Assembly: GCF_964204645.1 (NCBI RefSeq)
Contig: NC_134025.1
Coordinates: 16,839,101 to 16,903,100, forward strand
Direction: 5' to 3'
Source: Tubulanus polymorphus
Lineage: Eukaryota > Animalia > Nemertea
DNA length: 64,000 nt
The number at the start of each line of letters is the position of its first letter. Position 1 is the stretch's first letter. Below, in pieces: positions 556 to 53,247 of this stretch. The position numbers and the translations under genes are program-made. Below the pieces are notes generated by a model that searched no databases, was not told the origin of the DNA, and was given only the letters and a program-made list of their open reading frames with translations.

Positions 556-571
556 TTTTTTTATTATATAA

Positions 572-3305: not shown

Positions 3306-3335
3306 AAATATTAAGTTAAAATTAAGGATATATAA

Positions 3336-4463: not shown

Positions 4464-5072
4464 ATGAATAAGGAATTATTCATATTTGAGCCTCATATTA
4501 TGTTAATTTCTGGTGTAACAAATTGTGGAAAAACTTATTTTATATTAAATTTATTAGAAACTGTTTATGAAAACTATTTTGATAATATAGTATTATTTTG
4601 TCCAACATATGAATTTAATCAAACTTATGATAGAAATATTACTAGGAATAATAAATTTATTATATTAGATCCTAAAACAGTAAAAGAAAATTTAGATAAT
4701 TGTATTAAAATAGCAATTGATATTTATAAAGGATCAAATACATTATTCATTATAGATGATTGTGCTAATCTACATGATTCAAAAGTTAGAGAAAGTGAGT
4801 TATGCTATTTAGCTTTCTCTGGGAGACATTTTGGGATAACAACTTGGGTTTTAAATCAAAAATATAATTCAATTGTTAAAGACTTTAGAGAAGACTTTAG
4901 ATTTCTAGTTTTATTCTACAATAAAGATAGAAAATCGATGAAAAATGCACTTGAGGAAAATGATATTATTCCACATGATTTACATAATGAATATATGGAT
5001 AAGTTGAAAAACATTAAAAGATCAAAATCACTATTTAGATTACAACACCCATTTAAATATGAATTTATTTAA
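4464..5072 (+). CDS. FtsK/A32-like genome-packaging ATPase
   Basis: Walker A GVTNCGKT, Walker B FIIDD, GRH arginine finger, LNQKY motif. Confidence 0.93.
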   Translation: MNKELFIFEPHIMLISGVTNCGKTYFILNLLETVYENYFDNIVLFCPTYEFNQTYDRNITRNNKFIILDPKTVKENLDNCIKIAIDIYKGSNTLFIIDDCANLHDSKVRESELCYLAFSGRHFGITTWVLNQKYNSIVKDFREDFRFLVLFYNKDRKSMKNALEENDIIPHDLHNEYMDKLKNIKRSKSLFRLQHPFKYEFI

Positions 5073-5077
5073 ATTCA

Positions 5078-5325
5078 ATTAGTTTGTTAATCTAGTTGAA
5101 TTCTAGTTATTGGTATTTGTAACAAAAATCAAATAGATTTAACAATATTTTAACTAGCTTGTTAATCTAGTTTAATTCTAGTTACATTCTAGTTGAATTC
5201 TAGTTGTTAGTAGTTGAAACAAAAATCAACTAGATTTAACTAGAAATAAACAAAAACAACAATATTTCAACTAGCTTGTTAATCTAGTTGAATTCTAGTT
5301 ACATTCTAGTTAAATTCTAGTTGCA
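5078..5325. repeat. CTAG-rich degenerate tandem repeats upstream of the 201-aa gene
   Basis: Many copies of TCTAGTT/AACTAG; repeated block aatattt.aactagcttgttaatctagtt. Confidence 0.8.
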
Positions 5326-5356
5326 ACATCACACAATTAATTTTTTAGTTATATAA

Positions 5357-5962
5357 ATGGGAGGTGAAAAGAAAATAAAATCTAAAAATGGTGATGTTCC
5401 AATTGAAAAAACTTTAGATGATTTAGGAATAACTGAAACAAAATTAACTCCAGATGATGGTGCTTTAAATAATGTTACAACAAATAATAATTATGAATAT
5501 TATCTTTATTGTAAACATCAATTAGAAATATTAATAGCATCTGGAAAATGTAAAAATTTTGTCGGTAAAAATTTAACTTATAATGAATTAGATAGAGTGA
5601 AATCAGATGAAATTATTAGATTATTTAAGATTTATGAAGCCGCGAGAACAGCTAGAATTAATGATGCGATATCAGAAAATGTAGTAAAAGGTTATAGTAA
5701 ATTATGTAATTATATACTACCAATTGAAGATGAAAATAGATTATATTCCGATTTAAAAAATGATTATTTAGTTATGACTGAATTAAATAAATGGATTGGA
5801 TATTTATCATTTCAATTAGGTGGATTTATGACATTATTATCAACTGGAGTTATAACATTTTCAAATATTGAAAGTAAAAATATTTCTATAATAAATGAGC
5901 GAGGTGGAAGAAGTGAAGGAATTAACTGTGAAGAAAAAACCGAGATCACAGAAACAAATTGA
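5357..5962 (+). CDS. Conserved Polinton hypothetical protein with hydrophobic C-terminal segment (homologue of 49372-49941)
   Basis: Shared YEYYLYCKH, LYSDLKNDYLVMTEL, STGVITFSNI. Confidence 0.85.
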   Translation: MGGEKKIKSKNGDVPIEKTLDDLGITETKLTPDDGALNNVTTNNNYEYYLYCKHQLEILIASGKCKNFVGKNLTYNELDRVKSDEIIRLFKIYEAARTARINDAISENVVKGYSKLCNYILPIEDENRLYSDLKNDYLVMTELNKWIGYLSFQLGGFMTLLSTGVITFSNIESKNISIINERGGRSEGINCEEKTEITETN

Positions 5963-6251
5963 ATGGTCTCGGCAATTAGGAATTAAATCACAAGAATATA
6001 AAAAAGCAGTAAAAGAAAAAATAAGTAATAAAAATGGTGAAAATATTGTTATTTCTACTCCTTCTAATAATAGAATATTTGATAAATGTCTATATTTTAC
6101 AGTTGGATTTGTAATTGTATTCATTTTGATTGGGTGTAATTGGTATGAGAAATCAAATAAAATTCATGATATTAATAATTCTGAAACAACTGCTATCAAA
6201 AATGAAAATACTTCTGAAATGCCAAAATTGATAATTAAAAAAATGGATTAA
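5895..6251 (+). CDS. Small basic protein with one TM helix (homologue of 48978-49346)
   Basis: KKKPRSQKQIEWSRQLG vs KKKARSEKQIKWARELG; LYFTVGFVIVFILIG. Confidence 0.8.
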   Translation: MSEVEEVKELTVKKKPRSQKQIEWSRQLGIKSQEYKKAVKEKISNKNGENIVISTPSNNRIFDKCLYFTVGFVIVFILIGCNWYEKSNKIHDINNSETTAIKNENTSEMPKLIIKKMD

Positions 6252-7376
6252 TATTTTAGAAAAGCAAAAAAAAAAATTTTTTTTAATTAATTGAATATTA
6301 ATTGAATATCTCACTACTTTTGTCTATCTATGCGGAGCAATTAAATTGTCCAGATAAGTCATTTCGGATTCTAGATATTCATTATTTTTATTAATTTATT
6401 TTGTTTTTACTTGAATATTGTATTACAGTCGTTTCTTATTATTAGTTTTTTCTTAAATTGAAAGATGGCAGCACTGGGTGTGATGCTAAAATGAATATTT
6501 GAATTTGAATTTGTTTATCAATTAACATAGTAATTGATTACTAATTTGATTAAAAATTATATCATAATTAAGTTAAAAATCCATAATTCATTTATCAGTT
6601 TTCATTCTTACATTCTTTTCATTCGGAATAATTTATAATTTCAAATTTCACATATTTTTTTAACACCAGCAACATTTACTTAGGTGTTTTAGCTAAGTAT
6701 ATAAGGCAATTCATTCAACCACTGGAGTGCCGCTGGGCTTGGCTTGCAGGGGCATTTCGAAAATGCACCTTTGTCCACCCTCCGTGGTTCTCCTTCAGTT
6801 TCGACTTTCGATCGTCCTTTCGGGGGTAAGGGGTTGATAGGAAATGCATTAGGCGCCTTTAATATAATGTGTTTCCTGTCAACCATTGAAGGAGAATTGG
6901 TGAGGTGTGGGTCACAGGGGTGTAATTAGAAATGCTTGGGGATAGGTATCTCGAGGCGCCTCTCAATAACGGGATGCTTATCCCCTAAAAACTCTGCGAG
7001 TCAAGTCGGGTGGTTTTGCTAAAACTTACCGTAAAAACATTGAAATATTCCTTTTAATCACGAGAGAATGATGACTATCCTTCGTCACGGCCGAGCTAAT
7101 TTAAATAAACCTCGCTTTCAGCAACCAATGAAAACGTGGTGATTCAATGCCGGCTAACTGGCCTGTGTGTGTTGTATGTACTGCGTGCTTATTATATAAC
7201 TGCTAGCTATCCAATATAACAACAACGTTGTGCAACACCTGTTTGATTGATCAATATTCAAATGAAGCACTCTCTTATAATAACATGTAACAGATGTTTG
7301 ACTGTATGATTGTAGTTGTTTATAAAACGACTAAGGTCATTTTGGATTCTAGATATTCATTATTTTTATTTTTTAT

Positions 7377-7704
7377 TTAATCAACAATTTCTAAATCATG
7401 ATGACCGTCTTCATTTTTCCCATGATATATTATTTTAAATCCTACTAAATCTTTCAATTCCTCTGTACTCAATGAAACCCATTTATCGGGTAAAAACACT
7501 TTAAATTCTCGTGATGTACTAACATTACAGTAGCTTAAATTAGCTGATACTTTCTCTCCATATTTAGTTTTTATCTTTTCTAATTTCAATATCTTCATGT
7601 TCAATTTCTTTTGTAACATCAACTAACTTTTTTATTTCAAATTGTTTTTTTGTTGGTTCAATTCTGTTATTTATTGTTGCTAAGAATGCTTTTCTATCTC
7701 CCAT
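7377..7704 (-). pseudogene. Frameshifted homologue of the small protein at 39423-39776
   Basis: KYGEK..FKVFLPD..LSTEELKDL..YHGKNEDGHHDLEI matches NYGDK..FRTYLPD..LSSEDLEEL..YKGKNEKGHHEIDF; upstream TAAATG start (MGDRKAFL) at 7704 in another frame. Confidence 0.75.
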
Positions 7705-8719
7705 TTATTAGGAAAAAAAATTACTTGTGGTGATGAGTGGTGTCTAGTACTCTAGTACTCTGATCTGAAACCCACATCTTCCTATTACTCAATTTCATAA
7801 ATTATCAGTAATTTTTGAAGTTTTTCAGTAACAAGCATACAATACTAAAACACCGTTATACTATATAAATCATTTTATTAATCAACGAAAAAACAAATTG
7901 TGATTGTCAGAACAATTAATACTGTAATAATTGATTTGTCTTTTCGTCTCCAAATGACGCTGTATGTCAGTTATACCGCCTTGCGCTATGTTAATATCAA
8001 CTCCACAGTCCCTACAAAACGAGTGTTTCGAGCTCTCCTAGGCCTTCATGCAGGGGAATTTAACAGTGTAACTACTCCGAAACGTTTGCGTACCGGTCAG
8101 CCTCTTTCTTTTATTTGCTGGTTCATTGTTATTAGGGTCTTCATCGCTTAAATCCATCAAACCATCGCCGAATTCGTCACAACTTCTGTCGGCAGCCGCC
8201 ATTATAAGTCAACCTAATTACAGCCGAGAGCCGATGCGAATGGTTGGCGAAAGGATATCTTGTTTGCAAATCTTTTATAATTTAATTTGTTTATAATCGA
8301 CCAAATAAATAAAGCAGAATTGTGAATTGATAGACGAATAAAATAACTTCAGTCGGGTTATTGCAAAAAATTCCGCGCTTGCAAGCAACGTGGATATATG
8401 TTACGGCAGATGCGCTGTTGTGTTGTACTGTATAGTAAGGCACTTGCACAGTGTATAGGTTGCCACGGTGACAGCCGGCGCCAGGCGCGTGTATGTCAGC
8501 TCACACCAGCGGTCTGTGTACACTAACTGCTCGCGTGGCGTGCCGATAATCAAATCATCTTTCGTCATTTTTAAAGAATATCATAACGACGCTAGAATTT
8601 TCCGTAGAACGTAATAAAAATAAACTAAAATCGTAATTTTGAACACCCAATCGTAACATCGTAATTTGTAATGTCAATCCGTAACGATTACGGGAAAATC
8701 GTAACAGTTGGCAGGTCTG

Positions 8720-34194: not shown

Positions 34195-34870
34195 AGGCTT
34201 GTCGACAAGCAACGCGACGCCTACCGACTCCTACCGACGCAACTGAGCAACTGCAATCGCAGCCCAGCTTATAATGTCGACTGCGCTCCGATTCGCAGCA
34301 ACTGAGGCCGACTAGCGGGATATGAGATCCTCCCAGTTGCTTCCCTGCTTATGTCGGTTGCGATTACTAGCAACTGCAACAGCTCAAATGGTCACGTGAT
34401 AAGCATTTTGAGAATAAATTCGAATTATTAGGAAATATATTTCTATTAGAAAAGCTATTTCTTTGAGACTTTGATTTTTCTGATTCTGTTTTGAATACAA
34501 CGTGCTAGCGACATCATATAACGATGGCCGCTCACACCATAATTCTCCCAATTTCGTTTCTAGATCTTCGGTCCAGTCCTCTGCCGTGCTGAAGGTTTGG
34601 TTTACGTTTTGAACTACTTGAATTTGAAAGTTTATGACTAATTACGAATGACGCTAACTAGCGGTGATAATTTGTACTATGTATACGCGGTCTCTCATTG
34701 GCTGGAACCCCTGCGCTCAGTTCCGTCGCGTCGCAGATGAGCTTATGTCGGCTGCGATCGAAAGCAACTGCCCGCCTTCCGTAGGCCGGAGTAGAACATG
34801 GGCAACTAGCCGGATACGGCTGGCGACGAGTCGGTAGGCGTCGCGTTGCCGTCGCAAGCCGGCTTATGTC
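34195..34870. mobile_element. Left part of a MITE split by Polinton copy B (right part 52802-52920)
   Basis: gtcgacaagcaacgcgacgcctaccgac at ~34201 is inverted at ~52880-52908; repeated GCTTATGTCG motifs. Confidence 0.75.
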
Positions 34871-35468
34871 AGTAATAGGGGTAATGGGCTTTCATACCAA
34901 AGGTCGAACGGTCGAGCTCATTAAAAAACAAAACATTAAAAGTAATTTAAAACTATAATATATTTTCATAACCGTGTGCATTTTATATTAAAACTAAATA
35001 TTTATTCTAAGATATCAATAATTTAAAAAGCATATTATATTAAATCAATTGGTCGCTCCACTTCGCTACCGCTCCGCTCCGCGACCAATTGATTTATTTA
35101 CAATACACAAATTCATATAATCAAATATATTCAAATAATAATAATTATTCTATTATTCAACTGAAATACACACGGTTATGCAAATATATTATAGTTTTAA
35201 ATTACTTTTAATATTTGTTATTAATGAACTCGACCATTCAACCTTTGATATGAAAGCCCATTACCCCTATTACTCTTAAAATATTCATATAAATGAATAA
35301 CATTTAAATCATTGAACTTCTAAAATCAATTTTAATAAAAAATTTAGTATTAAAATGGAAGCAAATAAGTACTACTGTCCAACATGTAATATCAATATAG
35401 ATAAATCCCAAAAAGCAAGACACAATAAAACTAAAACACATTTAGAGAATAAATTGAAACTAGAATAT
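34871..35468 (+). repeat. Left terminal inverted repeat (first 404 bp form an imperfect hairpin)
   Basis: Reverse complement of 52204-52801 with about six mismatches counted by eye; includes the first 38 codons of the Zn-finger ORF. Confidence 0.95.
35330..35357 (+). promoter_or_regulatory. Palindromic start motif TTTTAATA-N10-TATTAAAA(TG)
   Basis: Recurs at 39399-39425, 46237-46262, the right TIR and 55648-55675 (-). Confidence 0.55.
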
Positions 35469-35894
35469 GAAGATGATATATTAGAAACTAAATTAGATGA
35501 ATTAAAGAATGAAAAAGAAGCATACAAATGTGATACATGTAATCAATCATTTAGTGATAAAAGATATTATAATGAACATTTAAAATCTAAAAGTCATATT
35601 AGAAATATGAATAATGATATTTTAGGAGAAGATTATTTTGATAATGATAACGATAAGAAACATAAGACAATTAAAAGAATAAGAAATAAATTAAACAATA
35701 AAAGACCATACATGGAAGATGTAAGAAAATATATTAATTTATTGGATAATAAAAAAGATATTGAGATAACCGAAGCATTTAAAAGTGATATTGGTCCAGC
35801 AGCTATCGAGTTTAAATTTCATAAAGGAAAAACATTAGAAGAAAATAAAAAAACATTTAGAAAATATGAAAGAAATAATAAAAATAATAACTGA
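35355..35894 (+). CDS. C2H2-type zinc-finger protein; probably the frameshift-separated N-terminus of pPolB
   Basis: YCPTC..HNKTKTH and YKCDTC..HLKSKSH; overlaps polB, with an A7 run at 35847-35853 joining the frames. Confidence 0.75.
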   Translation: MEANKYYCPTCNINIDKSQKARHNKTKTHLENKLKLEYEDDILETKLDELKNEKEAYKCDTCNQSFSDKRYYNEHLKSKSHIRNMNNDILGEDYFDNDNDKKHKTIKRIRNKLNNKRPYMEDVRKYINLLDNKKDIEITEAFKSDIGPAAIEFKFHKGKTLEENKKTFRKYERNNKNNN

Positions 35895-39422: not shown

Positions 39423-39776
39423 ATGGAGAGTAAACAAGCAAACAGTGAGAACAACAAATTATTTCTAGATAGAATTAAAGATATCACAAATGTAAAATCT
39501 GCAGATTATAAATTCAAAAAGTTAACAGAATTAACAATCCATATGAAATATCTAATTACAAATATTGATACAGTTACTAATAACTATGGAGATAAATTAG
39601 TTATTCACTTAGAATATGAAGGATTAAAAGGAAATACATATAAATTCAGAACATATTTACCGGATAGATTTCATAGATTATCAAGTGAAGATCTAGAAGA
39701 ATTATGTTCTGGTGATTTCTATTTCGTATACAAAGGTAAGAATGAAAAAGGGCACCATGAAATAGATTTCGAATAA
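39423..39776 (+). CDS. Small conserved protein next to polB (possible OB-fold ssDNA-binding protein)
   Basis: Homologue at 7377-7704; beta-rich pattern with YG and LP motifs; function inferred only. Confidence 0.6.
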   Translation: MESKQANSENNKLFLDRIKDITNVKSADYKFKKLTELTIHMKYLITNIDTVTNNYGDKLVIHLEYEGLKGNTYKFRTYLPDRFHRLSSEDLEELCSGDFYFVYKGKNEKGHHEIDFE

Positions 39777-39793
39777 GAAAATATGTAAAATAA

Positions 39794-40552
39794 ATGGCGG
39801 AATTAAAAGAATACAGAATATTTGTTGATTCTAGAAGGCTTACAAATTATAAATCTCATAATTTACTAGTTCAATTAGATAGAGAATTCAAGAATTGTGT
39901 AGATTTGAAATTAGTCAATATAAGTTTATGTAATTCTTTTTACAATATATCGAATAAAACTATTGAACATAATACTTTTTTAATTCATATTAGAAATGTA
40001 AATAAATGGTTTCATCTAATTTTAAAACCAGGATTATATAATTTAGAAACATTAGCTCAAGAAATCAATCGTAGAGCACGGTTGAAAATTAGAAAAGATG
40101 ATAAATTTTTAATAAGATTTTTAAAAAGTGATAGCTCAAATAAAATTAAAATAAAGGTATTTGATGAAAGTCAACATGCATTTATAGTAAAAAAACCACT
40201 AGCTAAATTGCTAGGAATTGCACCAGATGTTGTTACAGTAAACGTAGAAGGCATTTCAAATATAATACCTTTTACACACTTTTATATTTATTGCAATTTA
40301 ATCGATCCTACAAAAACATTCGAAGCAACTAAAGATATAACTTGTAATTCTGGTTTACAAAACATTTTACCATTGAAGAATGTTAAAGAATTTGGAACGC
40401 AAATAAATTATAATTTAACAGAATGTGATTTCAAACCTTGTATTCCACATTTCAATAATTTCAAATTAGAAATAAGAAATCATAATGGTTATTTAATTGA
40501 TTTGAATAACTTTCCTGTAATATATGAATTAGTTATAGGATGTAGAGAGTAA
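39794..40552 (+). CDS. Minor capsid protein (penton, single jelly-roll)
   Basis: IFVDS, NSFYNIS, PGLYN, FYIYCNLI, EIRNHNGYLIDL pattern and size typical of Polinton pentons. Confidence 0.8.
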   Translation: MAELKEYRIFVDSRRLTNYKSHNLLVQLDREFKNCVDLKLVNISLCNSFYNISNKTIEHNTFLIHIRNVNKWFHLILKPGLYNLETLAQEINRRARLKIRKDDKFLIRFLKSDSSNKIKIKVFDESQHAFIVKKPLAKLLGIAPDVVTVNVEGISNIIPFTHFYIYCNLIDPTKTFEATKDITCNSGLQNILPLKNVKEFGTQINYNLTECDFKPCIPHFNNFKLEIRNHNGYLIDLNNFPVIYELVIGCRE

Positions 40553-40568
40553 TTTTTTCATTATATAA

Positions 40569-40925
40569 ATGAATATAACTGTTGGGCCGAGCATATGTTT
40601 TGGATTTGATTTTAAACGTGAGAAAGAAATGAAATTTAACGTTACTGATGTAATTACACATATTAAAAATATTGCATTTTCTAATGAAACAACATTTGAG
40701 TATGAAACAACAATAGATAAAGAAACTTTTAATGTAGAAAAGATTACTAATTTAATTAGAGAATCTTTAAGATTTTATGAATTAGATGAAGATTTTATCA
40801 TCGATGATATTAAAAAAATAATAATTGAAATATATACAAATGAAACTAGTAATGAAATAAATGTTGAATTAATCATCACTAAGATAACTAAATATTTTGA
40901 TGATAGTAATTTCTTTGATAAATAA
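40569..40925 (+). CDS. Hypothetical acidic protein
   Basis: Open frame in a tightly packed gene array with T6-N7-TAAATG start. Confidence 0.7.
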   Translation: MNITVGPSICFGFDFKREKEMKFNVTDVITHIKNIAFSNETTFEYETTIDKETFNVEKITNLIRESLRFYELDEDFIIDDIKKIIIEIYTNETSNEINVELIITKITKYFDDSNFFDK

Positions 40926-41147
40926 ATGAGTGATAATAAGTGGATAATAACTGGATTATATAATGGCGCATTACTATCAGTTGGAACTGTTGGTTATTCA
41001 ATGGTATTAAAAAAAGTATTTAAAATGGGAAGTGTTAATGTTGATAGATTTGATATAAATGATATCTTAAAATTAACATTAGCAGTTACTTTATCTAATT
41101 TAACTATTGATTATTTGGAAAAACAAAAATATATTCCTCCCATATAA
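40926..41147 (+). CDS. Small hydrophobic/amphipathic protein
   Basis: TAAATG start abutting the upstream stop; GLYNGALLSVGTVGYSMVL and ILKLTLAVTLSNL segments. Confidence 0.75.
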   Translation: MSDNKWIITGLYNGALLSVGTVGYSMVLKKVFKMGSVNVDRFDINDILKLTLAVTLSNLTIDYLEKQKYIPPI

Positions 41148-41173
41148 ATGCATAATTTTTTTTTGCTAAATAA

Positions 41174-41596
41174 ATGGCTTCTGCAATTATAACTATTATA
41201 GGATCGGCAATTGTTAACGCTTTAGCATTTACTGGTGGCGGTTATTTATTTAAGCATATTGATAAAAATAGTTCATTAGGAGAACAAAGAAGACATAACT
41301 TAGCATTAGAGAAATACAATAAAGCAGCAGAAGAATATAGAGAAAAAAGACAAAACTATATGGATTATATTAACAAGGAATTATATGATCAGAAGATTTC
41401 ACATAGAGATTTTCAATCAGTTGATGATGCAATGAGTTTATATAACGCGGTAACCAATAAAGAAAAATTACATCTATACAAACCTAAATTATCAGATTAT
41501 TATACCCCAAGTAATGAACAGAAGAAATATGAAATAATATGGATTTTAGGTGGAACTGTTATTGTTATATTTGTTGCTTATAAGTTTACTAATTAA
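41174..41596 (+). CDS. Putative membrane-active virion protein
   Basis: Hydrophobic N-terminus, EQRRHNLALE coiled segment, C-terminal TM IIWILGGTVIVIFVAY. Confidence 0.75.
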   Translation: MASAIITIIGSAIVNALAFTGGGYLFKHIDKNSSLGEQRRHNLALEKYNKAAEEYREKRQNYMDYINKELYDQKISHRDFQSVDDAMSLYNAVTNKEKLHLYKPKLSDYYTPSNEQKKYEIIWILGGTVIVIFVAYKFTN

Positions 41597-41621
41597 TTAT
41601 TTATTATTTTTTGTTAAATAA

Positions 41622-42083
41622 ATGGATGATAAAGTTGATAATATTGATATTATTCCTCATGATATAAATAAAACTAAATTAAAAATATATTTAGAAAAAC
41701 AAATATTAGAATTTGAAAGTGACTTAAAAGTAAAAAAGAAAAAATATCTAAAAAGTAAAATTATATATTATTTGATTATAAATGGTTCGGTTACAATTAG
41801 TTCTGTAATAACATTTCTAGCAATATTCAGTCCATTAACACCTTTAGCTATATCAATTGGTGTGTTAGGATTAAGTTCAAGTGTTTTAACTGGTATAAGT
41901 TCGAAATTGAATATTAAAAGTAATAAAGAAAAAATTAAAACTAATATAAAAGAAATTAATAAATTAAAGAATACACTAGATTATATAATAAGTTTAAATG
42001 GTCATATAACAGTTGAAGAACAAGATAAATTATTAAAAGAATTAATAAATTATCAATTTTTTAATTATATAAATGGCAGATAG
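41622..42083 (+). CDS. Two-TM membrane protein flanked by coiled coils
   Basis: IIYYLIINGSVTISSVITFLAIF and LAISIGVLGLSSSVLTGI. Confidence 0.75.
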   Translation: MDDKVDNIDIIPHDINKTKLKIYLEKQILEFESDLKVKKKKYLKSKIIYYLIINGSVTISSVITFLAIFSPLTPLAISIGVLGLSSSVLTGISSKLNIKSNKEKIKTNIKEINKLKNTLDYIISLNGHITVEEQDKLLKELINYQFFNYINGR

Positions 42084-43458
42084 TTTTCCAAAAGATTTCC
42101 AATATAATAAATCAATTAAATATAATATTCCAGCAATAGATTTTAATAAAGATATTACATATAGAAATGAAGTTTTAGATTCATTAACTAATTTAGAAAT
42201 TTATGTTACTGAAACTAATAATTTTAATGCAAAGATGGAAAATATATTTCATGTATATTTAATTAATTTTAAAAAATTGAAAGATGAAAAACAATGGTTA
42301 TTAAAATCTAACATGAAGTATTGGCAGAACCAATTAAATTTTGCTGTTTATTGTGCAACAACAGGATGTGGAATAAGTTGGAATGATCATTTGAATAATT
42401 CTAAATATAAACTAATTCAAAGTTTATTTAGATTTCATACATACTTTCAAATCAGAATAATATTAAATGAATTAGAGTGCGCTTTACCAGGATCTAGGTA
42501 TTTTAAAGAATTAGATAATAATATTAATTTATCAAAGTTTTATAAAATTTGTAATGAATTTAATATAGATATAAATAATTCTGATTTTAGAACAAAAATT
42601 GTAACAATAAGATCACTTTCTTGCCCCAAAAAGATTGCAGAATATTGTGCACTTCCCATACCATCTAATAGTTTGTATAATATCTATAGTCATAAATTAG
42701 GTTATGGTAAAATAGAAACTAAGGATTTAGAAACATTAAATTTTAATAAATTACCGACATTTTATGATAATTTAAAACAAGAAAACAATAATGGTTGGGT
42801 TTATTTCATTTTAGGAAATAATGAAGGTTTTACAAAATCAGGTATACAAAGAATAAATCAATCTATTAGAACTTATTTGATATGTATTCTAGGTGCACAA
42901 GTTGAAACAAGATCACCGATAATTGGAAATTTAAATACATCATTCGATACACAAAAACAATTTAAAGTTTTATTTGAAGATTCCATTCATAATGATAAAA
43001 ATAGATCGATTCCAGAAAACATTATAAGATATCAAAATTATTTAGATAAATCTCATGTAAGACTAAATTATTGTATAGGCCCTAATCTATTAATTATTTC
43101 TAATGATTTAGTATTGAAGATGGGAAATATAATTGGTTATAATAATCTAATTAAAACTGCAACAATAAATAATTCATTTGGATTAAATGATATAAATAAA
43201 AAGATTATTACCGCCCCAAAATTAATGGAAGGTGAAAAAAATAAAAAACATATTCAATCAACAGAAACTAAAACTAAGAATATTAAATTAAATAATGATT
43301 CTAAACCGGATTATAATACATCAGAAAATATTAAAACTGATAATATTCAACATGATATAATTAAAACTGATAATGATAATAAATTACATGAAAATACTAA
43401 ATTAGCTATAACTTGTATAGGAATTGTAATCGGAGGAATATTATATTTTAAATTTTAA
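42073..43458 (+). CDS. Conserved 461-aa hypothetical protein with C-terminal TM anchor
   Basis: Long open frame; WQNQLNFAVYCATTGCGIS motif; LAITCIGIVIGGILYF tail; homologue in copy A. Confidence 0.85.
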   Translation: MADSFPKDFQYNKSIKYNIPAIDFNKDITYRNEVLDSLTNLEIYVTETNNFNAKMENIFHVYLINFKKLKDEKQWLLKSNMKYWQNQLNFAVYCATTGCGISWNDHLNNSKYKLIQSLFRFHTYFQIRIILNELECALPGSRYFKELDNNINLSKFYKICNEFNIDINNSDFRTKIVTIRSLSCPKKIAEYCALPIPSNSLYNIYSHKLGYGKIETKDLETLNFNKLPTFYDNLKQENNNGWVYFILGNNEGFTKSGIQRINQSIRTYLICILGAQVETRSPIIGNLNTSFDTQKQFKVLFEDSIHNDKNRSIPENIIRYQNYLDKSHVRLNYCIGPNLLIISNDLVLKMGNIIGYNNLIKTATINNSFGLNDINKKIITAPKLMEGEKNKKHIQSTETKTKNIKLNNDSKPDYNTSENIKTDNIQHDIIKTDNDNKLHENTKLAITCIGIVIGGILYFKF

Positions 43459-43474
43459 GTTTTTTATTATGTAA

Positions 43475-44875
43475 ATGGCAGAAGGTGGGGAAGATATTCC
43501 ATTGAATCCTTTTGGTGATGAACCCGGTATAAGTGATGAACCACAACCTGATTTTAATGAAACTAATATTGATAATGATGATGAATCAGCATATAATTCT
43601 AATTTAGCAGATAGTGGTTCTAAAGTCCCATCAACAGAAGAAAATGATAGAAGAATTAGATCGAGAATACCTACTGAAAATTTAGACCCAGGTTTAGAAA
43701 GAGAAAATTTAGAAAATTATGAATTTATGTATGAATTTCAACATGTATTTAAAGAATCTGGATATAATATAAATGATAGAGGCGCTAGAGTTTTAGTACA
43801 AGAATTAAAATCTTTAGATGGTGAATATTATTATCATTTGAAAGATGATTATTATATTGATATCTCTTATAAAAAACAAAACAAAATATTAGCAGAATCA
43901 ACTTTGCTTAAGTCTGACTCATTACTATCTAGAATTAAAATAATAAGAAATGGTAATGAAATAGAAGATGTAACACAAGAAGAAATTATTAAAAATGAAA
44001 GAGTATTTAAACAAAGAATTAATGAATTATTTGAAACAATCAAAGATAATCCAGAAACAGAAACAACTTCTGAACAGAATAAAACTTCCAAAACTAGTAA
44101 ACTTAAATCAAATAAAGTTCCAATTGAAAAACTTTTACCGAATGGATTACTTGATGCAACAGATCAAGAATTAGAAGATTTAGATATATTTTCTGATAAA
44201 GCAATTAGAGAGATTATTAGTATAAGAAATGCATCTGATAAAATTGCGCATGATAAAAGTATAAGAGATTTTAAAATTAGAACTTTAGAAAAAGAATTAA
44301 CTGATAAAAATAAAGAAATAGAACAATTAAAGTCTGATTTAGATCATCAAGTAATTGATGAAATAGAATATAGGCAAAAAGAATTACGTTTAGAAAAAGA
44401 AAAAGATGATTTAGAATATAACATAGAATTACAAAAAGAAGAAATTAAATTATTATTAAAATCATATGATTATAATATTAATAGATTAAAAGATGTTTTT
44501 AAAAGATATCTAATAAAACCAGATTCTAAAATATCATTGAAAGATAGAATAAAATTATTATTTAAGTTTGAAGGAATAACAATTCTTTCAATTCTAACAG
44601 CTGTAACTATGTTATTTACAACAATAGGTTTAGCAATATCAAATGCTTTGAAATCTACTCCTACTCCCAATAAACCGGATAAACCCCCGAATGACAATAA
44701 TTCTATACAAGATAAAGTTAAGGATGGTTTAAAGAAATTAGCAAAATATTTATGGGAACTATCTAAAAAATCTGCTGCAGCATTGCCAGGAGTTATTGCA
44801 TCAATTGTTGGTTTTATATTGAAATCTGCTGGGAATATTCTTAACTTTGCTGCTGAACATATTATTTTATTTTAA
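43475..44875 (+). CDS. Acidic/coiled-coil protein with C-terminal TM helices (last helix cut by a frameshift)
   Basis: Homologue at 572-2007 continues LITVVSAIIFGLV; 1-nt indel near 44873. Confidence 0.8.
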   Translation: MAEGGEDIPLNPFGDEPGISDEPQPDFNETNIDNDDESAYNSNLADSGSKVPSTEENDRRIRSRIPTENLDPGLERENLENYEFMYEFQHVFKESGYNINDRGARVLVQELKSLDGEYYYHLKDDYYIDISYKKQNKILAESTLLKSDSLLSRIKIIRNGNEIEDVTQEEIIKNERVFKQRINELFETIKDNPETETTSEQNKTSKTSKLKSNKVPIEKLLPNGLLDATDQELEDLDIFSDKAIREIISIRNASDKIAHDKSIRDFKIRTLEKELTDKNKEIEQLKSDLDHQVIDEIEYRQKELRLEKEKDDLEYNIELQKEEIKLLLKSYDYNINRLKDVFKRYLIKPDSKISLKDRIKLLFKFEGITILSILTAVTMLFTTIGLAISNALKSTPTPNKPDKPPNDNNSIQDKVKDGLKKLAKYLWELSKKSAAALPGVIASIVGFILKSAGNILNFAAEHIILF

Positions 44876-44979
44876 AATTACAGTTGTAAGTGCTATTATT
44901 TTTGGGTTAGTAAATATGATATCAAAAAATATCAAGTAACCATGATTAAAAATAAATAATTAATTTCTTTGTTAAATAA

Positions 44980-46227
44980 ATGAGTGGGAGTTATATCAAT
45001 CCTTCTAAGAATCATAGAATATCTAATGCTATTAAAGCAGAAAGATCACATCAGATAATTACTAATAACCCTTCTAATATTAATCCTGGTGAAACTTTAT
45101 ATGTTAGAATTCATAGATTAACACAAAATACTTTTTATGTTCCAAATAGTATTTATTTATCAGCCGATATAAAAGTAACTGGCCATGATAACAATTATGT
45201 TGTTGATAATGTTGAAAGATATTTGATTAAAAAATTAACTATAAAGATTGGTCCGGAAACAGTTTTCTCATTAGATGATTATAATTTATTTATGCATTAT
45301 AAAGATTAATGGTTAACTAAAGAAAATAGAAATAATATGATATTTCAGGGTATTCAATCGGAAAACCATAATAAATTAAGATCAGGAGCTAATGACGCAA
45401 TAGTAACTCGTGCCACAGATAATTTGATAAAAAAGATTTATGGAAGCAAATATAAAATTCCATTAGACTTTGAATTGATAAATAATAATGCACCTTTATA
45501 TAAATACGCAATTCAAGAAGACGTTATATTCGAAATAACATTTGCTCCTGTAAATGAAATTGTATTATCTAGCGTTGTTAAAGATATGAGTTATGAATTA
45601 TCGAATATATGTTTAGAATATGATACAGTAACTGATGAAAATATTGCTAACACAATTCAAACTCAATACAATCAAGGATTTTCATTATTATATGATTATA
45701 TTGATAAATTTAAAACCGTAACTATTAATGCAAATGATGAAATTATTAATGAGAATATTAACTTCCCAAGAAGATCTATTAAAGGTATATTAATATTTTT
45801 TACCATTGCAACATATACTAATGGTGCAATAAATGTTGATAATTATTATAATCCTGAAATAACAAAAGTAAAAATAACTATCGAAGGAATAGCAAATAAA
45901 ATATTTTGTCAAGGAATGAGAATGATTGATCAATGGCCAGAAATTAGAAAACATTTTATGAATGAAAATGTGAAATCATCTGAAAATTGTAATATTAATC
46001 AAATTGATTATTATACCGGTAATAAATATGCATTATGGTTAGATTTTAAAACAACAGAGGATAATTCATTACATGGTTCTGGAAAAAAACTACAAAACAC
46101 TAAAGATGGAATACAATTATTCATGACAAAGAAAAAGGGAAGCCTAAATTTCAAAATGCATATTTATATTATATCTGACGCGCAATTAAATATTGTAAAT
46201 TCACAATTAGATAGTGTTATGTATTAA
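44980..46227 (+). pseudogene. Major capsid protein (double jelly-roll), single nonsense mutation
   Basis: 416-codon frame with TAA at 45307-45309 where copy A has TTA (Leu); beta-rich; size and context fit the MCP. Confidence 0.85.
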
Positions 46228-46259
46228 AATTTTAACTTTAATAAAAAATCTTATATTAA

Positions 46260-47099
46260 ATGGAAGGAGGTAAAGTATATAAACATATTCCATACATCGA
46301 TACACATGAAAATAATGATGGTTTATATTATGTAATACCTTGTAATATAGCTTTGATATTTGATCCTATTTTCAAAATTTATAAAACTAAACTAATAGAA
46401 ATCGATAATAATAAAAGTGGTGTTGTTGATAATTTAAGTAATGTAATTGATAATAATGTAATACCTACTACAGTAATACCTACTACAGTAATACCTACTA
46501 CATCTAATAATGTAATACCTACTACATATAATAATGCAATAATGTTAAATGTTAGTGAAAATAGAAATTATTGTGATTATTGTAAAGGTGAATTTTCAAA
46601 CGCTCCATCAAATTGGAATAAACATATGAATACAAAGGTACATATTACTAATGTTATAGAACGTGTTGGTTTAAGAGAATTTATAGAACACCCATTTAGA
46701 TATGTTACAAAGTTTGTTTCAAATAAAAAAGTAAATGGTAAAGAATTATATGAAGATTTTTTATTAGCAACACCTAATAAAGATGAATTAGATTTAACTG
46801 ATGCTAATGAAATATTAGGATCAAACACTGTAAATGAAATATTAGGAGCAAAGACTAATAAAGATTCTATGAAACATAAAGTAGAAAATAATGATAACTT
46901 TGATTGGATGAATAAGCATAACAATGAAACAACTATTGATGATTCGGTAAAAAAGGTGAAAAATAAGTATAAAAATAATAAAGAATTTGAAGAAGAAAAT
47001 TCGGTAGAGAATTTGAAAAAATTGATGGGGTATGATAGTGAATTGGAGAGTGATGATGAAAGTGATTCAGAAAGTAATTATCTAACACTCAAAAAGTAA
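46260..47099 (+). CDS. Zinc-finger protein with VIPTT repeats and acidic tail
   Basis: YCDYC..NWNKHMNTKVH; repeated gtaatacctacta units; absent at this position in copy A. Confidence 0.75.
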   Translation: MEGGKVYKHIPYIDTHENNDGLYYVIPCNIALIFDPIFKIYKTKLIEIDNNKSGVVDNLSNVIDNNVIPTTVIPTTVIPTTSNNVIPTTYNNAIMLNVSENRNYCDYCKGEFSNAPSNWNKHMNTKVHITNVIERVGLREFIEHPFRYVTKFVSNKKVNGKELYEDFLLATPNKDELDLTDANEILGSNTVNEILGAKTNKDSMKHKVENNDNFDWMNKHNNETTIDDSVKKVKNKYKNNKEFEEENSVENLKKLMGYDSELESDDESDSESNYLTLKK

Positions 47100-47158
47100 T
47101 AAAGGTTGAAAATTGTATAAAATAATAGTAAATAAAAAAGGGGTTTTTAAGTATTTAA

Positions 47159-47238
47159 GGTATCTAATAGGGTATCAGGTATTAGGGTATCAGGTATTAG
47201 GGTATCTAATGGGGTATCAGGTATTAGGGTATCTAATA
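47159..47238. repeat. 16-bp-type tandem repeat (gggtatcaggtatta) between convergent gene blocks
   Basis: Direct read. Confidence 0.85.
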
Positions 47239-47254
47239 CATAGTCATATAAATT

Positions 47255-47866
47255 TTATTTTATAAATTTATATTCATAGGGAAATTGTAGTCTCAGTAAT
47301 AATTTTGAACCTTTATTATTCTTTAATTTATTCATATATTCATCGTGTAATTCAGTAGGTATAATTTGATTTTCTTCCAATGATTGTTGCATAGATTTTT
47401 TATCTTTGTTATAAAATAAAACTAGAAATCTTATATCCTCCCTAAAGTCTTAAACAATTGAATTATATTTTTGATTTAAAACCCATGTTGTTATCCCAAA
47501 ATGTCTCCCAGAGAAAGCTAAATAACATAACTCACTTTCTCTCACTTTTGAATCATGTAAATTAGCGCAATCATCTATAATGAATAATGTATTTGATCCT
47601 TTATAAGTATCAATTGCTATTTTTATACAATTATCTAAATTTTCTTTTACTGTTTTAGGGTCTAATATAATAAACTTTTTCTTCTTAACTATATCTCTAT
47701 TATATGTTTTATTCATTTCATAAGTAGGACAGAATAATATTATATTATCAAAATGATTCTTATAAATAGTTTCTAACAAATCTAATATGAAATGTGTTTT
47801 ACCACAGTTTGTTACTCCAGTAACTAACATATTATGCGGTTCAAATATAAATAAATCTTTATTCAT
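47255..47866 (-). pseudogene. Packaging ATPase with one nonsense mutation
   Basis: GVTNCGKT, FIIDD, GRH; TAA at 47450-47452 replaces Lys; frame continues DFREDIRFL..QFPYEYKFIK. Confidence 0.9.
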
Positions 47867-48971
47867 TTATTCTTTTAATTTTACTAGATAAAATCCATTC
47901 ATTAAATTTATCATCGTATCCTTTATATTTCACCAAAGAATACTTTTTTCCTTTAAGAGTTTTTGTTTTCAATACTTTTTCTATTTTGTATTCTATTTCA
48001 TCTGGATTTGGTACAAGTGATAATTCTTGTTCATAGAAATAACCTAATATTTCTTCATCTTTTAGATCTTCTAATTTATAAACAAAAGGTTTAGTTAATA
48101 TTATCTTTTTAATCTTGAATATTTCTTCTGTAAAATTTGGGGTATAACCTTTATAAAATGTTTTTCGATATTTAGATATTCTTACGTGTTGTCCTATTTT
48201 AAATTTAGGTTCACCGAAATCGTGTGTAACAAACGCTCCATATAAATTATTCCAAACTATTTCCGAATTATCTTCTTTTCTAGCTTGTATAGGTTTCATA
48301 TTTATAGAACTATGTTTAGAATTATCATAACCTTTCACTAAATCATCTAACACATCGATATATTTATATGTTTCATTAGCAGTAAAGTATTTCCACATTC
48401 TAGTTTTCAATGTTTTATTAAATCTTTCTATAATAGATGCTTTTTTATCTGAGTGTGTTGAAAAATAATCTACATCGTTATCAGATAATAGTTTTTTGAA
48501 ATGTTTGTTATAAAATTCCTTACCTTCATCAAATTGTATCTAATCTGGAATAGCTTCTTTAAATATAGATTTAAAAGCATTTGTAACTTCTATTCCAGTT
48601 TTATTTTTGATTGGAATTGACCATGCGTATCTACTGAATATGTCTATAACATTCAGTATCCAGAAATATCCTTTGTTGTATTCCTCTAAGTTCTTCATAT
48701 CAATTAAATCTGCTTGCCATTGTTGATCGATATATGAAACCATAACTTTTCTTGTTAAATAAGTTTTATCCATTTTCTTGTGGATTTGATATGTTGGTTG
48801 ATTTTGTAACCATGATTTTAATTCGCTATATTTTATACCACCATGTGGGCGCCATACGGCACCATCACCATTATCAGATTTAATTTTATTCCATAATTCT
48901 GAAACGTTAGAATATGATACTTCACTCTCTGGGTTATAATAAAAATCTCTTAAATATTGTTCTTTTTTCAT
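47859..48971 (-). pseudogene. int: rve integrase with chromodomain, one nonsense mutation
   Basis: QWQADLIDM, IQFDEGKEF, ERFNKTLK, chromodomain; in-frame TAG at 48540-48542. Confidence 0.92.
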
Positions 48972-48977
48972 CTTATT

Positions 48978-49346
48978 TTAATCCATTAATAATAATTTAG
49001 ATTTAGTTTCAATGGCTTTATGATTTGACTTATTTTCTGGTATGATAGGTTTATTGTCATTGGAATCATCTTTATCATCAGATTTGAATTTTGATTTATA
49101 TATTACACCGGATAATATAATAACTGTTACTAATCCAATTGTAATATATAATTTATAATTACTTCCAGCATTAGAAGAATCAGATGGATTATTATTTGAA
49201 TCAATATCAGATAAAGTCTGTGATTCATTTATATCAGTTAATTTCTTTTTCTTAGCTTTTTTTAATTCTGAAGATCTTTTACCTAATTCTCTTGCCCATT
49301 TAATTTGTTTCTCGGATCTAGCCTTTTTCTTAACGCCATCACTCAT
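48978..49346 (-). CDS. Small basic protein with one TM helix
   Basis: Homologue of 5895-6251; LYITIGLVTVIILSGVIY. Confidence 0.8.
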   Translation of the reverse strand: MSDGVKKKARSEKQIKWARELGKRSSELKKAKKKKLTDINESQTLSDIDSNNNPSDSSNAGSNYKLYITIGLVTVIILSGVIYKSKFKSDDKDDSNDNKPIIPENKSNHKAIETKSKLLLMD

Positions 49347-49371
49347 TTATTTTAGTTAATTTTTGTTCTGA

Positions 49372-49941
49372 TTAATTTTTTGTTTCGACGTTTGGTTGTA
49401 GTACATCTGTTTCATTCTTACCTGATTTATATTCCATAGACTTGATATTCGAAAATGTAATGACACCAGTAGAAATTAATGTCATAACCGATCCTAATTG
49501 AAATGAAGCATAACCAACCCATTTTTGTAATTCAGTCATAACTAAATAGTCATTTTTCAAATCACTATATAATTTATTTTCATCATCAATTGGCATTAAC
49601 TGGTTACATAATTTTGAATAACATTTGACAATACCATCTGAAATAGAATCATTTATTCTAGCTAATCTTGCTTCTTCATAAATCTTAAAATATTTTATTA
49701 CTTTATCTGGTTTCATAGCATCTAATTCTTGAAAAGTAATGATTCTATTTAAAAACTCCTTAGTTTTTCCACCGGCAATCAATAGTTCTAGATGATGCTT
49801 ACAATATAAATAGTATTCATAATCAATATTACAATTAACTTGAGCACAATTAGTTACAACTGTATCGTTATTATCACTTATACCCAAATCATCTAATGTC
49901 TTTTCAATATCAATACTATTCTTATTAGATTTCTTTGACAT
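49372..49941 (-). CDS. Conserved Polinton hypothetical protein
   Basis: Homologue of 5357-5962. Confidence 0.85.
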   Translation of the reverse strand: MSKKSNKNSIDIEKTLDDLGISDNNDTVVTNCAQVNCNIDYEYYLYCKHHLELLIAGGKTKEFLNRIITFQELDAMKPDKVIKYFKIYEEARLARINDSISDGIVKCYSKLCNQLMPIDDENKLYSDLKNDYLVMTELQKWVGYASFQLGSVMTLISTGVITFSNIKSMEYKSGKNETDVLQPNVETKN

Positions 49942-50353
49942 TTATATTAGAGAAAAAAAGCAAAAAAATATTATAAGTATTCTTCAAATGATACTAGCTA
50001 GTTAAAGCTAAAGAATTCTAGTATTGACTACTGATACTAGCTATTTGAATTTAAAGAATTTCTATTTGAATCTATTCAAAATATAAAGTATTCTCTTTTG
50101 AAAAGAAAATATTAGAAATATAATAGAATTCACTAGCTAGTTGAAGTTATTGTTTTTTTATTATATTTTATTTGAATTCTATTTGATATCTCACTACTTT
50201 TGTTTATCTATTAGGAGCAGTAATTATAACCGTCCAGATAAGTCATTTCGGATCCTTGATATCAAATTCCTCAACGTATTGTTCATTATTTGGATCATTG
50301 TTCCATTGATCAATAAATTTCTTTGCCTTTGTTAACTGTTCTAAAGATAACTG

Positions 50354-50917
50354 TTAATCTAGTTTATTAGATTTAATTATGTTTTCCTTCTTTTCTAAAG
50401 GTCTTAAATTCTTCCAATTCCAAATAAGTTTTTTATTGTATTCATCATTCATGTTAAATTTAGATATTGGTAACACGTGATCAATATGGTAATAATCCCC
50501 ATAATTATCTATATTCATTTTATCATCGAATTGAAATATAATCCATGATTTGAGAAATTCATCTGAACAACCCAATAAATTAGATAGTGTTTCTGAATGT
50601 GTTTCTTTGTTGAATAATTGTGTTAATCTAGATCTTAAGCATTGTTTCAATCTAAAATTAAGATCTGTTTGATATCTTTCTCTCATATATTCTGCCATAT
50701 AATAATTATAATGTTCTATATTATCTTCTCGATATTGTTTAGTATATAGTTTAGTGCAAGTTTTACAGCAATATTGAAAACCATCTTTGCTAATCTTACG
50801 CTTACTAAATTCTGTTAATGATTTATCTAATTCACACTTAGAACACTTCTTGTAATATATATTTATAACACCAGTATTATTTGTAATATTGATAATTTGT
50901 GGTTGTTCTGGTTCCAT
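50354..50917 (-). CDS. HNH endonuclease with N-terminal zinc ribbon
   Basis: KKCSKC..CKTC; YHIDHVLPIS..NLRPL..ENIIKSNK. Confidence 0.85.
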   Translation of the reverse strand: MEPEQPQIINITNNTGVINIYYKKCSKCELDKSLTEFSKRKISKDGFQYCCKTCTKLYTKQYREDNIEHYNYYMAEYMRERYQTDLNFRLKQCLRSRLTQLFNKETHSETLSNLLGCSDEFLKSWIIFQFDDKMNIDNYGDYYHIDHVLPISKFNMNDEYNKKLIWNWKNLRPLEKKENIIKSNKLD

Positions 50918-51054
50918 TTATTATATGTATTTTTTACTAAATTGGTTAATATTTTAGAATCCTCTTCCATTTCTTCGACCAACGTCATCCTTTTTCATTC
51001 CTCGCTGCTTTTGATAAGTTGTTTCGATTCCTTGATATCTAAATCATACCACTG

Positions 51055-52065: not shown

Positions 52066-52317
52066 TCAAATAGAATCATGTTCTAGTATAAACATCGGAT
52101 CCTTGATGTCAAATTCCTCAACGTATTGTTCATTATTTGGATCATTATTCCATAATTCAATAAATTTCTTTGCCTTTGTTAACTGTTCTGAATATAACTG
52201 TAAATATTCAAGTTTCAATTTATTCTCTAAATGTGTTTTAGTTTTATTGTGTCTTGCTTTTTGGGATTTATCTATATTGATATTACATGTTGGACAGTAG
52301 TACTTATTTGCTTCCAT
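52066..52317 (-). CDS. Short zinc-finger ORF starting in the right TIR
   Basis: First 38 aa identical to 35355-35894, then a different C-terminus. Confidence 0.6.
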   Translation of the reverse strand: MEANKYYCPTCNINIDKSQKARHNKTKTHLENKLKLEYLQLYSEQLTKAKKFIELWNNDPNNEQYVEEFDIKDPMFILEHDSI

Positions 52318-52801
52318 TTTAATACTAAATTTTTTATTAAAATTGATTTTAGAAGTTCAATGATTTAAATGTTATTCATTCATATGAATATTTTAAGAGT
52401 AATAGGGGTAATGGGCTTTCATATCAAAGGTTGAATGGTCGAGTTCATTAATAACAAATATTAAAAGTAATTTAAAACTATAATATATTTGCATAACCGT
52501 GTGTATTTCAGTTGAATAATAGAATAATTATTATTATTTGAATATATTTGATTATATGAATTTGTGTATTGTAAATAAATAAATTGGTCGCGGAGCGGAG
52601 CGGTTGCGAAGTGGAGCGACCAATTGATTTAATACAATATGCTTTTTAAATTATTGATATCTTAGAATAAATATTTAGTTTTAATATAAAATGCACACGG
52701 TTATGAAAATATATTATAGTTTTAAATTACTTTTAATGTTTTGTTTTTGAATGAGCTCGACCGTTCGACCTTTGGTATGAAAGCCCATTACCCCTATTAC
52801 T
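52204..52801 (-). repeat. Right terminal inverted repeat (hairpin 52398-52801)
   Basis: Reverse complement of 34871-35468. Confidence 0.95.
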
Positions 52802-53247
52802 TATGTCGAACCGATTGACGAGCAACTGGCGGCCTCTCGTAGGCCGCTAGTTGCCGCTAATCGGCGATAAACCCAGTTGCGTCGGTAGGCGTCGCGTTGC
52901 TTGTCGACATACGCCAGCCTTAAGAGGACGTCAATGGGACGTCAAGATGGAATTAAGTCTGGATTACGTCACTTTGATGCCGTATGGAGGACGTCAAGAA
53001 ATTAACGTAATTTTGACGAAATAAAAATACGTCTTAAATGATGTCGAGAAAACTTTCATTTTTTACTCAAAATCCAACGTCTGGTTTTGCTGTTTTAAGG
53101 ACGTAATGAAAACGTAAAAATGCCTAGTGGGACTGAATTGCTGATGAAATTTTGAATCTAAAACAATGATATTTAATGTTATTGATTGAACCATTTACGC
53201 CGAGAGGTGCGGATCTGCACTTTTACTGAAATCCTGCGTATGGCCCA

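Follow-up and report, generated by a model that had tools for sequence, protein, structure and literature searches.

How Polintons are expressed in animals, and why their particles go unseen, are questions that PMC8097293 puts as open. A locus in the nemertean Tubulanus polymorphus raises the first of them in a pointed form. The stretch of DNA analysed here (the window: 64,000 nucleotides of contig NC_134025.1, positions 16,839,101 to 16,903,100 of the forward strand) contains a 17.9-kb Polinton/Maverick, copy B (34871-52801), which sits in an animal chromosome and begins most of its genes with TAAATG, the hexamer of poxvirus late promoters. A first-pass annotation had noticed these starts and proposed a helper-dependent provirophage that a co-infecting pox-like virus would switch on. 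Is the motif a true promoter signal, and whose RNA polymerase would read it? We find the signal to be real, lineage-wide and apparently unreported, and we think it probable that the polymerase is that of a poxvirus or a close relative.

Copy B is a Polinton and probably lies outside the virophage family. It has the pPolB, rve integrase, A32 ATPase, double jelly-roll capsid, inverted repeats and 6-bp duplication of Polintons/Mavericks (Polintoviricetes, adintoviruses). AG..CT ends and a duplication of this length are the accepted marks of Polintons; copy B displays both together with terminal inverted repeats, and because these ends are ordinary the poxvirus-type telomere resolution invoked in the annotation is not needed. 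The GC content of the element is about 0.24. A family profile search found no RNA polymerase gene among the copy B open reading frames (ORFs), as the annotation had held, and all Rpb1/Rpb2 matches of the host genome (G000) lie outside the Polinton.

TAAATG is present, at the exact coordinates, at all thirteen copy B starts for which it had been reported, as well as at 572, 2050, 3336, 4464, 5357, 5895 and 7704 in a second element, copy A, and at 54439. The last two positions call for another reading: 7704 is the zinc-finger start repeated in the right inverted repeat of copy A, and 54439 is part of neither copy but of another, small element. The seventeen gene starts originally counted in copy B include one, at 35866, that is probably an artefact of a break, because in copy A the zinc-finger ORF continues into the polymerase N-terminus. 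Sixteen true starts remain: thirteen with TAAATG, two with TAAAATG (35355 and 39423) and that of the integrase, which lacks the motif, unlike the integrase start at 3336 in copy A. TAAATG occurs at 13/17 starts versus 24/299 out-of-frame sense ATGs (Fisher p 1.6e-10); in-frame internal ATGs were excluded as controls because TAA cannot precede them. TAA accounts for 56/680 trimers upstream of copy B starts, which gives a binomial p of 1.4e-11 for the TAAATG count. The upstream T-run described earlier holds for part of the set: six of the thirteen have at least 6 T and two have TTTCTTT, but five (39794, 46260, 47866, 49346 and 50917) have an A-run instead. A T at -12 (A of ATG = +1) is found in 12/13. 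The TAAAATG form following an A-run recurs at one poxvirus locus start, and the G8R intermediate promoter has TAAA with A-rich sequence upstream (PMC12917281).

Across the copies fetched from the host genome, orthologous starts keep the motif and vary in the spacer. TAAATG is retained at the capsid (6/6), SLATT (8/8), ATPase (6/6), HNH (5/6) and 189-aa (7/8) starts; it is less frequent at those of the 73-aa ORF (5/8), the 122-aa ORF (4/6), the integrase (2/8), the 117-aa ORF (1/4) and the subfamily-B zinc finger (0/10), some misses being rows with a wrongly placed start. For the 252-aa ORF, which by its pattern is the probable penton gene, 4/10 copies have TAAATG and five more read TAAATA-ATG. 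In subfamily A, the sister subfamily, the polymerase (6/6) and a VLTF3-like gene (8/9) also begin with TAAATG of the T-run type, so that starts of the host type remain at none of the genes. The TAAATG ORFs of the fetched copies fit the known gene set in 143/154 cases, and no additional cargo from a recognised family is among them.

The motif extends to relatives from metagenomes. Related capsids were found in 57 loci, of which 32 were counted after 6 near-duplicates and 19 short fragments (TAAATG at 3/30 starts) were left out. In a core group of 13 loci with GC contents of 0.20-0.44, twelve in a capsid-tree clade with support 100/98 and one (L036) added by identity, TAAATG stands at 49/57 starts versus 37/767 control ATGs. 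In a sister clade of 10 loci (GC 0.26-0.60) it is found at 1/66 starts; there 44/66 have the ordinary A at -3, AT-rich members included. Three near-core loci, L025, L027 and L045, have TAAATG at 0/17 starts. Six distant loci show it at 15/18, a figure that is no test since these loci were grouped by the motif itself. Mapped on the tree, the motif history takes 3 changes; a single origin is unrejected (AU p 0.163) but not demonstrated. TAAATG starts are thus a lineage trait and not a matter of base composition. Scans of viral contigs with the capsid returned no relative.

The sequence around the motif resembles that of poxvirus promoters. T occupies -12 in 83% of 64 starts versus 39% of 49 internal TAAATG (p 1.7e-6). 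Our poxvirus reference comprised 21 of 38 loci, chosen for spread, in which 196/437 starts are TAAATG. The T peak of these 196 lies at -13 (0.73), in agreement with the published late consensus of T 10 nt upstream of TAAAT (PMC11980589), and that of the Polintons at -12/-13. The upstream profiles of the two correlate best at shift 0 (r 0.54; 0.42-0.44 one base off), and the poxvirus profile correlates with internal TAAATG at r 0.21. A poxvirus-trained matrix, corrected for composition, gave 1.59 for the poxvirus starts themselves; compared with 1000 shuffles in each case, it gave 1.17 for the relatives' starts (shuffles -1.45, reached by 0/1000), 0.29 for copy B (-1.30, 2/1000) and -1.18 for internal TAAATG (-1.66, 43/1000). 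In 1/13 copy B starts and 2/68 relatives' starts the TAA also terminates an upstream ORF. Twelve other starts of the relatives lack the hexamer, and 4/12 carry TAAAT or TAAAAT 1-3 nt upstream, out of frame. The pattern suggests that TAAATG acts as a promoter-type signal and not as a translation device.

Between gene classes drawn after viewing copy B, upstream T counts differ (4.2/6 for capsid-block genes, 37 starts, vs 3.2/6 for ATPase, polymerase and others, 22 starts; p 0.008), a difference that, by analogy, suggests the split between late and intermediate promoters. Tested for the poxvirus early terminator TTTTTNT, core relatives (10 vs 28, z -4.9) and copy B (3 vs 8) are low in T5-V-T, with no loss in the sister clade (13 vs 14) or in the distant TAAATG loci (6 vs 4); since T5 and T6 are also low, the shortage is a weak hint of terminator avoidance. 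AATAAA is not avoided on the coding strands of copy B (52/52) or the core relatives (138/145), and the test is non-discriminating because the AT-rich sister clade (45/43) shows no avoidance either.

Sister copies in the host genome offer another link. Pox_VLTF3 matches occur at at least 63 places (150/228 candidates scored), and in subfamily A the gene lies tail to tail with the polymerase. The match exceeds the Pfam cut-off in a six-frame search, not in whole-protein hmmscan, and the Atlas also places the domain with VLTF3 (score 0.94). The predicted fold of the domain (pLDDT 80.1) has cowpox A2 as its top match (E 4e-6, TM 0.63), with entomopoxvirus VLTF3 at E 2e-5, and appears to consist of a zinc ribbon and a TFIIB/cyclin-type helical domain, the best Z being a middling 7.8. 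By this model the gene is a VLTF3/A2-like factor. A word-index search with the domain returned nothing, and a profile search 11 proteins, mostly unnamed. In L015, a relative with TAAATG at 14/15 starts, a VLTF3 homologue begins at the contig end. VLTF3 in some coral polintoviruses was already known (PMC11131425).

A motif with pox-like spacing that is confined to one branch of the family, a Polinton that encodes no RNA polymerase and a VLTF3-like gene in sister copies together lead us to favor as helper a co-infecting poxvirus or close relative, whose RNA polymerase would transcribe the Polinton. The element would then be a likely provirophage, having promoters shared with a family of large cytoplasmic viruses and no RNA polymerase of its own; membership in the virophage family, also part of the earlier proposal, is improbable. 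Integrated copies would be silent without the helper. Upon co-infection, the helper polymerase would start in AAA and slip, and the ensuing poly(A) leader would replace the unfavourable T(-3) context with AAA-AUG. The T-run starts of the capsid gene and its neighbours would be late promoters; the A-run/TAAAA starts, in copy B those of the polymerase, the 117-aa ORF and the ATPase, would be intermediate ones. The VLTF3-like protein might draw helper polymerase to Polinton promoters, or compete with the helper's factor. Particles made during co-infection would reach further cells, those of the germ line among them, and insert there by means of the rve-chromodomain integrase. It is tempting to go further and regard the whole branch as provirophages of undiscovered poxviruses of marine invertebrates, worms among them, silent in the germ line, woken by infection, equipped with a captured A2-like factor that commandeers the helper's polymerase, and protective to the host; this fuller version we consider doubtful. 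No result lends support to the inherited antiviral defence that the annotation had suggested, and four core genes of copy B are themselves disrupted: those for the capsid, the integrase and the ATPase, and the zinc finger/polymerase gene at its junction.

Several observations weigh against a poxvirus helper. No poxvirus gene was found in the host genome with profiles PF03340, PF03288, PF03003 and PF03293, three of which match no control either; Pox_Rif, Pox_D5, Capsid_NCLDV, Pox_G9-A16 and Pox_RNA_pol gave nothing there, and other poxvirus polymerase subunits were not sought. We know of no poxvirus from lophotrochozoans, and the literature gave no clear case. The host is itself a lophotrochozoan by its Hox cluster, which has homeodomains of the Lox5, Lox4 and Post2 types; searches for other host markers (Chitin_bind_4, COX1, telomere repeats) were negative. 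The sole endogenous large virus found has TAAATG at 1/92 starts. The VLTF3-like gene is absent from copy B and has a match in L027, a relative without TAAATG. The lead of A2 among the fold matches is small, mimivirus, marseillevirus and others being close behind, and may reflect the shortness of poxvirus A2. The 196 poxvirus starts are orthologues from 21 loci and hence non-independent, the Polinton T peak lies one base closer to the start than theirs, and several genes switch between the late and intermediate classes from one lineage to another. Finally, the high chromosomal copy number is easier to explain by autonomous transposition.

Could the helper have been another cytoplasmic virus? 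An RNA polymerase search of the host genome revealed four sets, three of them split by introns and belonging to the host, and one without introns on chromosome C8. The latter belongs to an endogenous large DNA virus (G000:C8, ~4,523,700-4,638,000; L147:3718 to L158:7975) of ~114 kb, GC 0.50 and intronless, whose inverted ends of ~12.7 kb (99% identity) hold Rpb2 and A32. Its genes include Rpb1, Rpb2, PolB, A32, poly(A) polymerase, YqaJ and a UL9-like helicase; no capsid or VLTF3 was identified in it. The PDB chains best matching its polymerase subunits are those of the African swine fever virus polymerase, and on that identity the virus is asfarvirus-like. Its left end is represented in contigs from two samples; for its Rpb1, viral contigs yielded no relatives. 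This genome has therefore been entered by a cytoplasmic virus of the poxvirus/asfarvirus class. The virus on C8 lies beside Polinton copies, many of its genes have T-runs upstream, and TAAAT occurs in 13/92 of its upstream regions (expected 7.7; 16/500 shuffles reach this). Yet this virus makes a poor helper candidate, because of its single TAAATG start and because its enriched word, ATAG (36 vs 14.4), is under-represented upstream of Polinton starts (4 vs 11.4, of 68). It also shares no protein with the Polinton at E 0.05, and we find a helper of asfarvirus-like or other non-pox cytoplasmic type quite improbable. Somewhat better placed, and still unlikely, is a helper-free scheme in which the Polintons' own VLTF3/TFIIB-like factor steers nuclear host Pol II to TAAAT initiators and serves the copies that lack the gene in trans. 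The many host-genome copies of the factor gene, its TFIIB-like predicted fold and the high copy number of the element fit this scheme. Some small relatives of giant viruses are said to have no RNA polymerase. These relatives keep VLTF2/3 (10.64898/2026.06.19.733378). But the factor gene itself starts with a T-run TAAATG, which would make a loop without a starter, and its absence from copy B and presence in L027 speak against this scheme as well. Moreover, a transcript begun inside AAA would lack a leader except where the polymerase slips, as that of poxviruses does (PMC6211774), and the register match to poxvirus promoters would have to be coincidence.

Less probable again is that TAAATG serves as a device for translation or packing, by coupling stop to start or guarding with an in-frame stop, or is an ancestral relic, with host Pol II transcribing from upstream. 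The window does contain two stop-start junctions (40925/40926 and 4463/4464), and the AATAAA test fails to separate the clades. However, TAA is the upstream stop in only 3/81 starts and is never replaced by TAG or TGA; the out-of-frame TAAAT variants and the fixed T peak at -12/-13 do not suit such a device, and retention of the motif across capsids 33-77% identical argues for current selection. Chance in AT-rich DNA, which the low GC content of the element might seem to invite, has practically no probability left: the motif is kept at GC 0.40-0.44 (L016 2/3, L017 3/4) and scarce at GC 0.26-0.30 (L030 0/4, L032 1/7, L025 0/3). Chance is refuted by this GC-independent distribution, the enrichment in the window and the core versus sister counts.

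If a poxvirus-like helper is accepted, how does the system compare with known ones? Copy B differs from other Polintons/Mavericks in that almost every gene has a poxvirus-type promoter, a feature that the sister clade lacks, and in that no protease was found. Helper dependence and host defence have been demonstrated for mavirus and the EMALE provirophages, and for this Polinton are only inferred. Mavirus and the EMALEs of Cafeteria (Lavidaviridae) are likewise integrated, with rve and pPolB and one helper-type promoter motif; for mavirus-like elements shared helper promoters are an accepted sign of activation, and the motif varies by type (PMC8547959). They differ in having a protist host, a helper of the mimivirus family, a TCTA motif and a virophage capsid. 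The yeast elements pGKL1/2 are cytoplasmic and are not known to have a capsid or an integrase. They are linear and use a poxvirus-like TAAAN initiator that yields 5' poly(A) leaders, and encode their own RNA polymerase (PMC6211774). In vaccinia late and intermediate promoters, too, TAAATG spans the start codon and T lies some 10 bases upstream, or TAAA follows an A-rich region (PMC11980589, PMC12917281). Besides the T peak, the Polinton promoters differ from them in a stronger A at -6 to -4 and in their chromosomal setting. Also comparable are the entomopoxvirus-associated Polinton-like viruses of Barth et al. (PMC11296320), likewise proposed as poxvirus hyperparasites in animals; these have highly divergent capsids and insect hosts, lack an rve integrase in their PolB-type elements, and are linked to poxviruses through occlusion bodies. 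The words "promoter", "motif", "TAAAT" and "transcription" have 0 occurrences in the main text of that paper, supplements aside, and the available parts of PMC11131425 and 10.64898/2026.06.19.733378 hold no promoter analysis and no helper link. We found no paper tying Polinton gene starts to poxvirus promoters in the literature covered, the supplements of PMC11296320 and PMC11131425 and most subscription papers lying outside its scope.

The promoter set points to a poxvirus-like agent in lophotrochozoans. If the poxvirus-helper reading is true, the provirophage idea extends from protists to animal germ lines, and a six-letter signature could, with nothing but sequence, assign Polinton branches to their likely helpers. 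Sister branches may be adapted to different helpers; this would account for the failure to see Polinton virions. In L025, L027 and L045, TATA begins 4-22 nt before the ATG in 12/17 starts (shuffle mean 3.6, max 10); the same placement is seen in 20/66 sister-clade starts (shuffle mean 13.3, max 24). In the three loci this TATA is too close for a host TATA box and resembles an asfarvirus late motif, a possible helper switch.

The features of copy B and the part of copy A inside the window are collected in Table 1. The 117-aa ORF has Phi29 SSB as its nearest Pfam-bearing Atlas cluster (score 0.85). The predicted capsid fold, from a copy in L002 (pLDDT 83.8), has the PBCV-1 capsid as top match (E 6e-16); PBCV-1 and iridovirus capsids rank first, mavirus 41 and Sputnik 49. 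The A32 ATPase has 138 aa in copy B vs 202 aa in copy A, and its start lies within the integrase 3' end; the integrase profile PF00665 matches in copy A at E 2.4e-10. No adenovirus-like cysteine protease was matched among copy B ORFs in Pfam, NCBIfam or PHROG; 74% of Polintons have one. By gene content copy B probably belongs to Polinton group 2, the capsid tree being one without named reference capsids.

Table 1. Positions, in the window, of features of copy B and of copy A
Feature	Positions	Strand	Remarks
Right part of copy A, sister subfamily	1..7789	+	left end at L073:91; duplication CAATTT; ~101-nt repeats
Left target-site duplication, copy B	34865..34870	+	TATGTC
Left terminal inverted repeat, copy B	34871..35486	+	starts AG; 98.1% to right repeat, 617 columns
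Promoter-like signal of zinc finger/polymerase gene	35330..35357	+	A-run, ending TAAAATG; putatively intermediate-like
C2H2 zinc-finger ORF, 179 aa	35355..35894	+	likely polymerase N-terminus, out of frame with polymerase in copy B
Protein-primed DNA polymerase B, 1175 aa	35866..39393	+	PF03175 E 1.6e-15; without intein in copy B
117-aa ORF	39423..39776	+	TAAAATG start and A-run; possible ssDNA-binding protein, a lead only
252-aa ORF	39794..40552	+	TAAATG and A-run; no family match (Pfam, NCBIfam, PHROG)
118-aa ORF	40569..40925	+	T-run TAAATG; TAAATG in 7/7 copies
73-aa hydrophobic ORF	40926..41147	+	sole copy B start with TAA doubling as upstream stop
140-aa ORF	41174..41596	+	T-run TAAATG; present in both clades; TAAATG in 9/9 copies
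SLATT-like 2-TM protein, 153 aa	41622..42083	+	T-run TAAATG; NF033632 E 1.9e-5, under cut-off
461-aa conserved ORF	42073..43458	+	T-run TAAATG; no family match; TAAATG in 9/9 copies
466-aa coiled-coil/hydrophobic ORF	43475..44875	+	T-run TAAATG; TAAATG in 8/8 copies
Late-like promoter signal of major capsid gene	44962..44982	+	TTTCTTT-N-TAAATG
Major capsid protein, double jelly roll	44980..46227	+	split into ORFs 44980-45309 and 45337-46227 in copy B
279-aa ORF	46260..47099	+	A-run TAAATG
A32-type packaging ATPase	47450..47866	-	PF04665 E 9.6e-11; A-run TAAATG (47866); shortened in copy B
rve integrase with C-terminal chromodomain	47859..48971	-	two pieces in copy B; start without TAAATG
122-aa ORF	48978..49346	-	one hydrophobic stretch; A-run TAAATG
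189-aa ORF	49372..49941	-	T-run TAAATG
HNH/endonuclease VII-like protein, 187 aa	50354..50917	-	A-run TAAATG; phrog_1035 E 2.7e-17
Right terminal inverted repeat, copy B	52186..52801	-	ends CT; contains zinc-finger start copy
Right target-site duplication, copy B	52802..52807	+	TATGTC

Copy A differs from copy B in its ends and gene order. On the left it extends beyond the window, and that part carries a disrupted VLTF3-like gene as well as a polymerase with an intein. The intein, with a LAGLIDADG-like domain, sits at the YFD/TDS motif of the subfamily-A polymerase (L073:3346-4798; L071:1836-2908; L072:324-1402) and is absent in copy B; Intein_splicing (E 2.8e-4) and LAGLIDADG_3 (E 1.7e-3) are both under cut-off. 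Inteins are uncommon in animal chromosomes. Polinton capsid matches in the host genome number at least 132 (132/1669 candidates scored, all at 92-100% identity). They lie mostly in the middle parts of chromosomes C1-C12, and the integrase chromodomain may target heterochromatin. Three GC-rich direct repeats of 71 nt, spaced ~130 nt apart, lie inside copy B ahead of its right inverted repeat (51059-51389). The small element at 53880-55875, minus strand, combines a piece of Polinton repeat with a 24-nt tandem array (54501-55049). Its ORFs, of 72 aa (the T-run TAAATG at 54439), 100 aa (zinc finger) and 219 aa, are not in the standard gene set; similar repeats occur at L075:6378-9416, and it is possibly a non-autonomous satellite. 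A third, truncated Polinton copy on the minus strand (62360-64000 and L075:1-2400) has a piece of polymerase adjoining a repeat end. A host retroelement reverse transcriptase ORF occupies 20107-21639 on the minus strand (RVT_1 E 1.7e-33). Capsid homologues (55% identity, P0045 cluster) filed as Bartonella proteins on contigs <2 kb are probably host-animal DNA in those assemblies. Among the relatives, L015 encodes a deoxynucleoside kinase (L015:10340-10981, E 1.7e-31) with a T-run TAAATG start.

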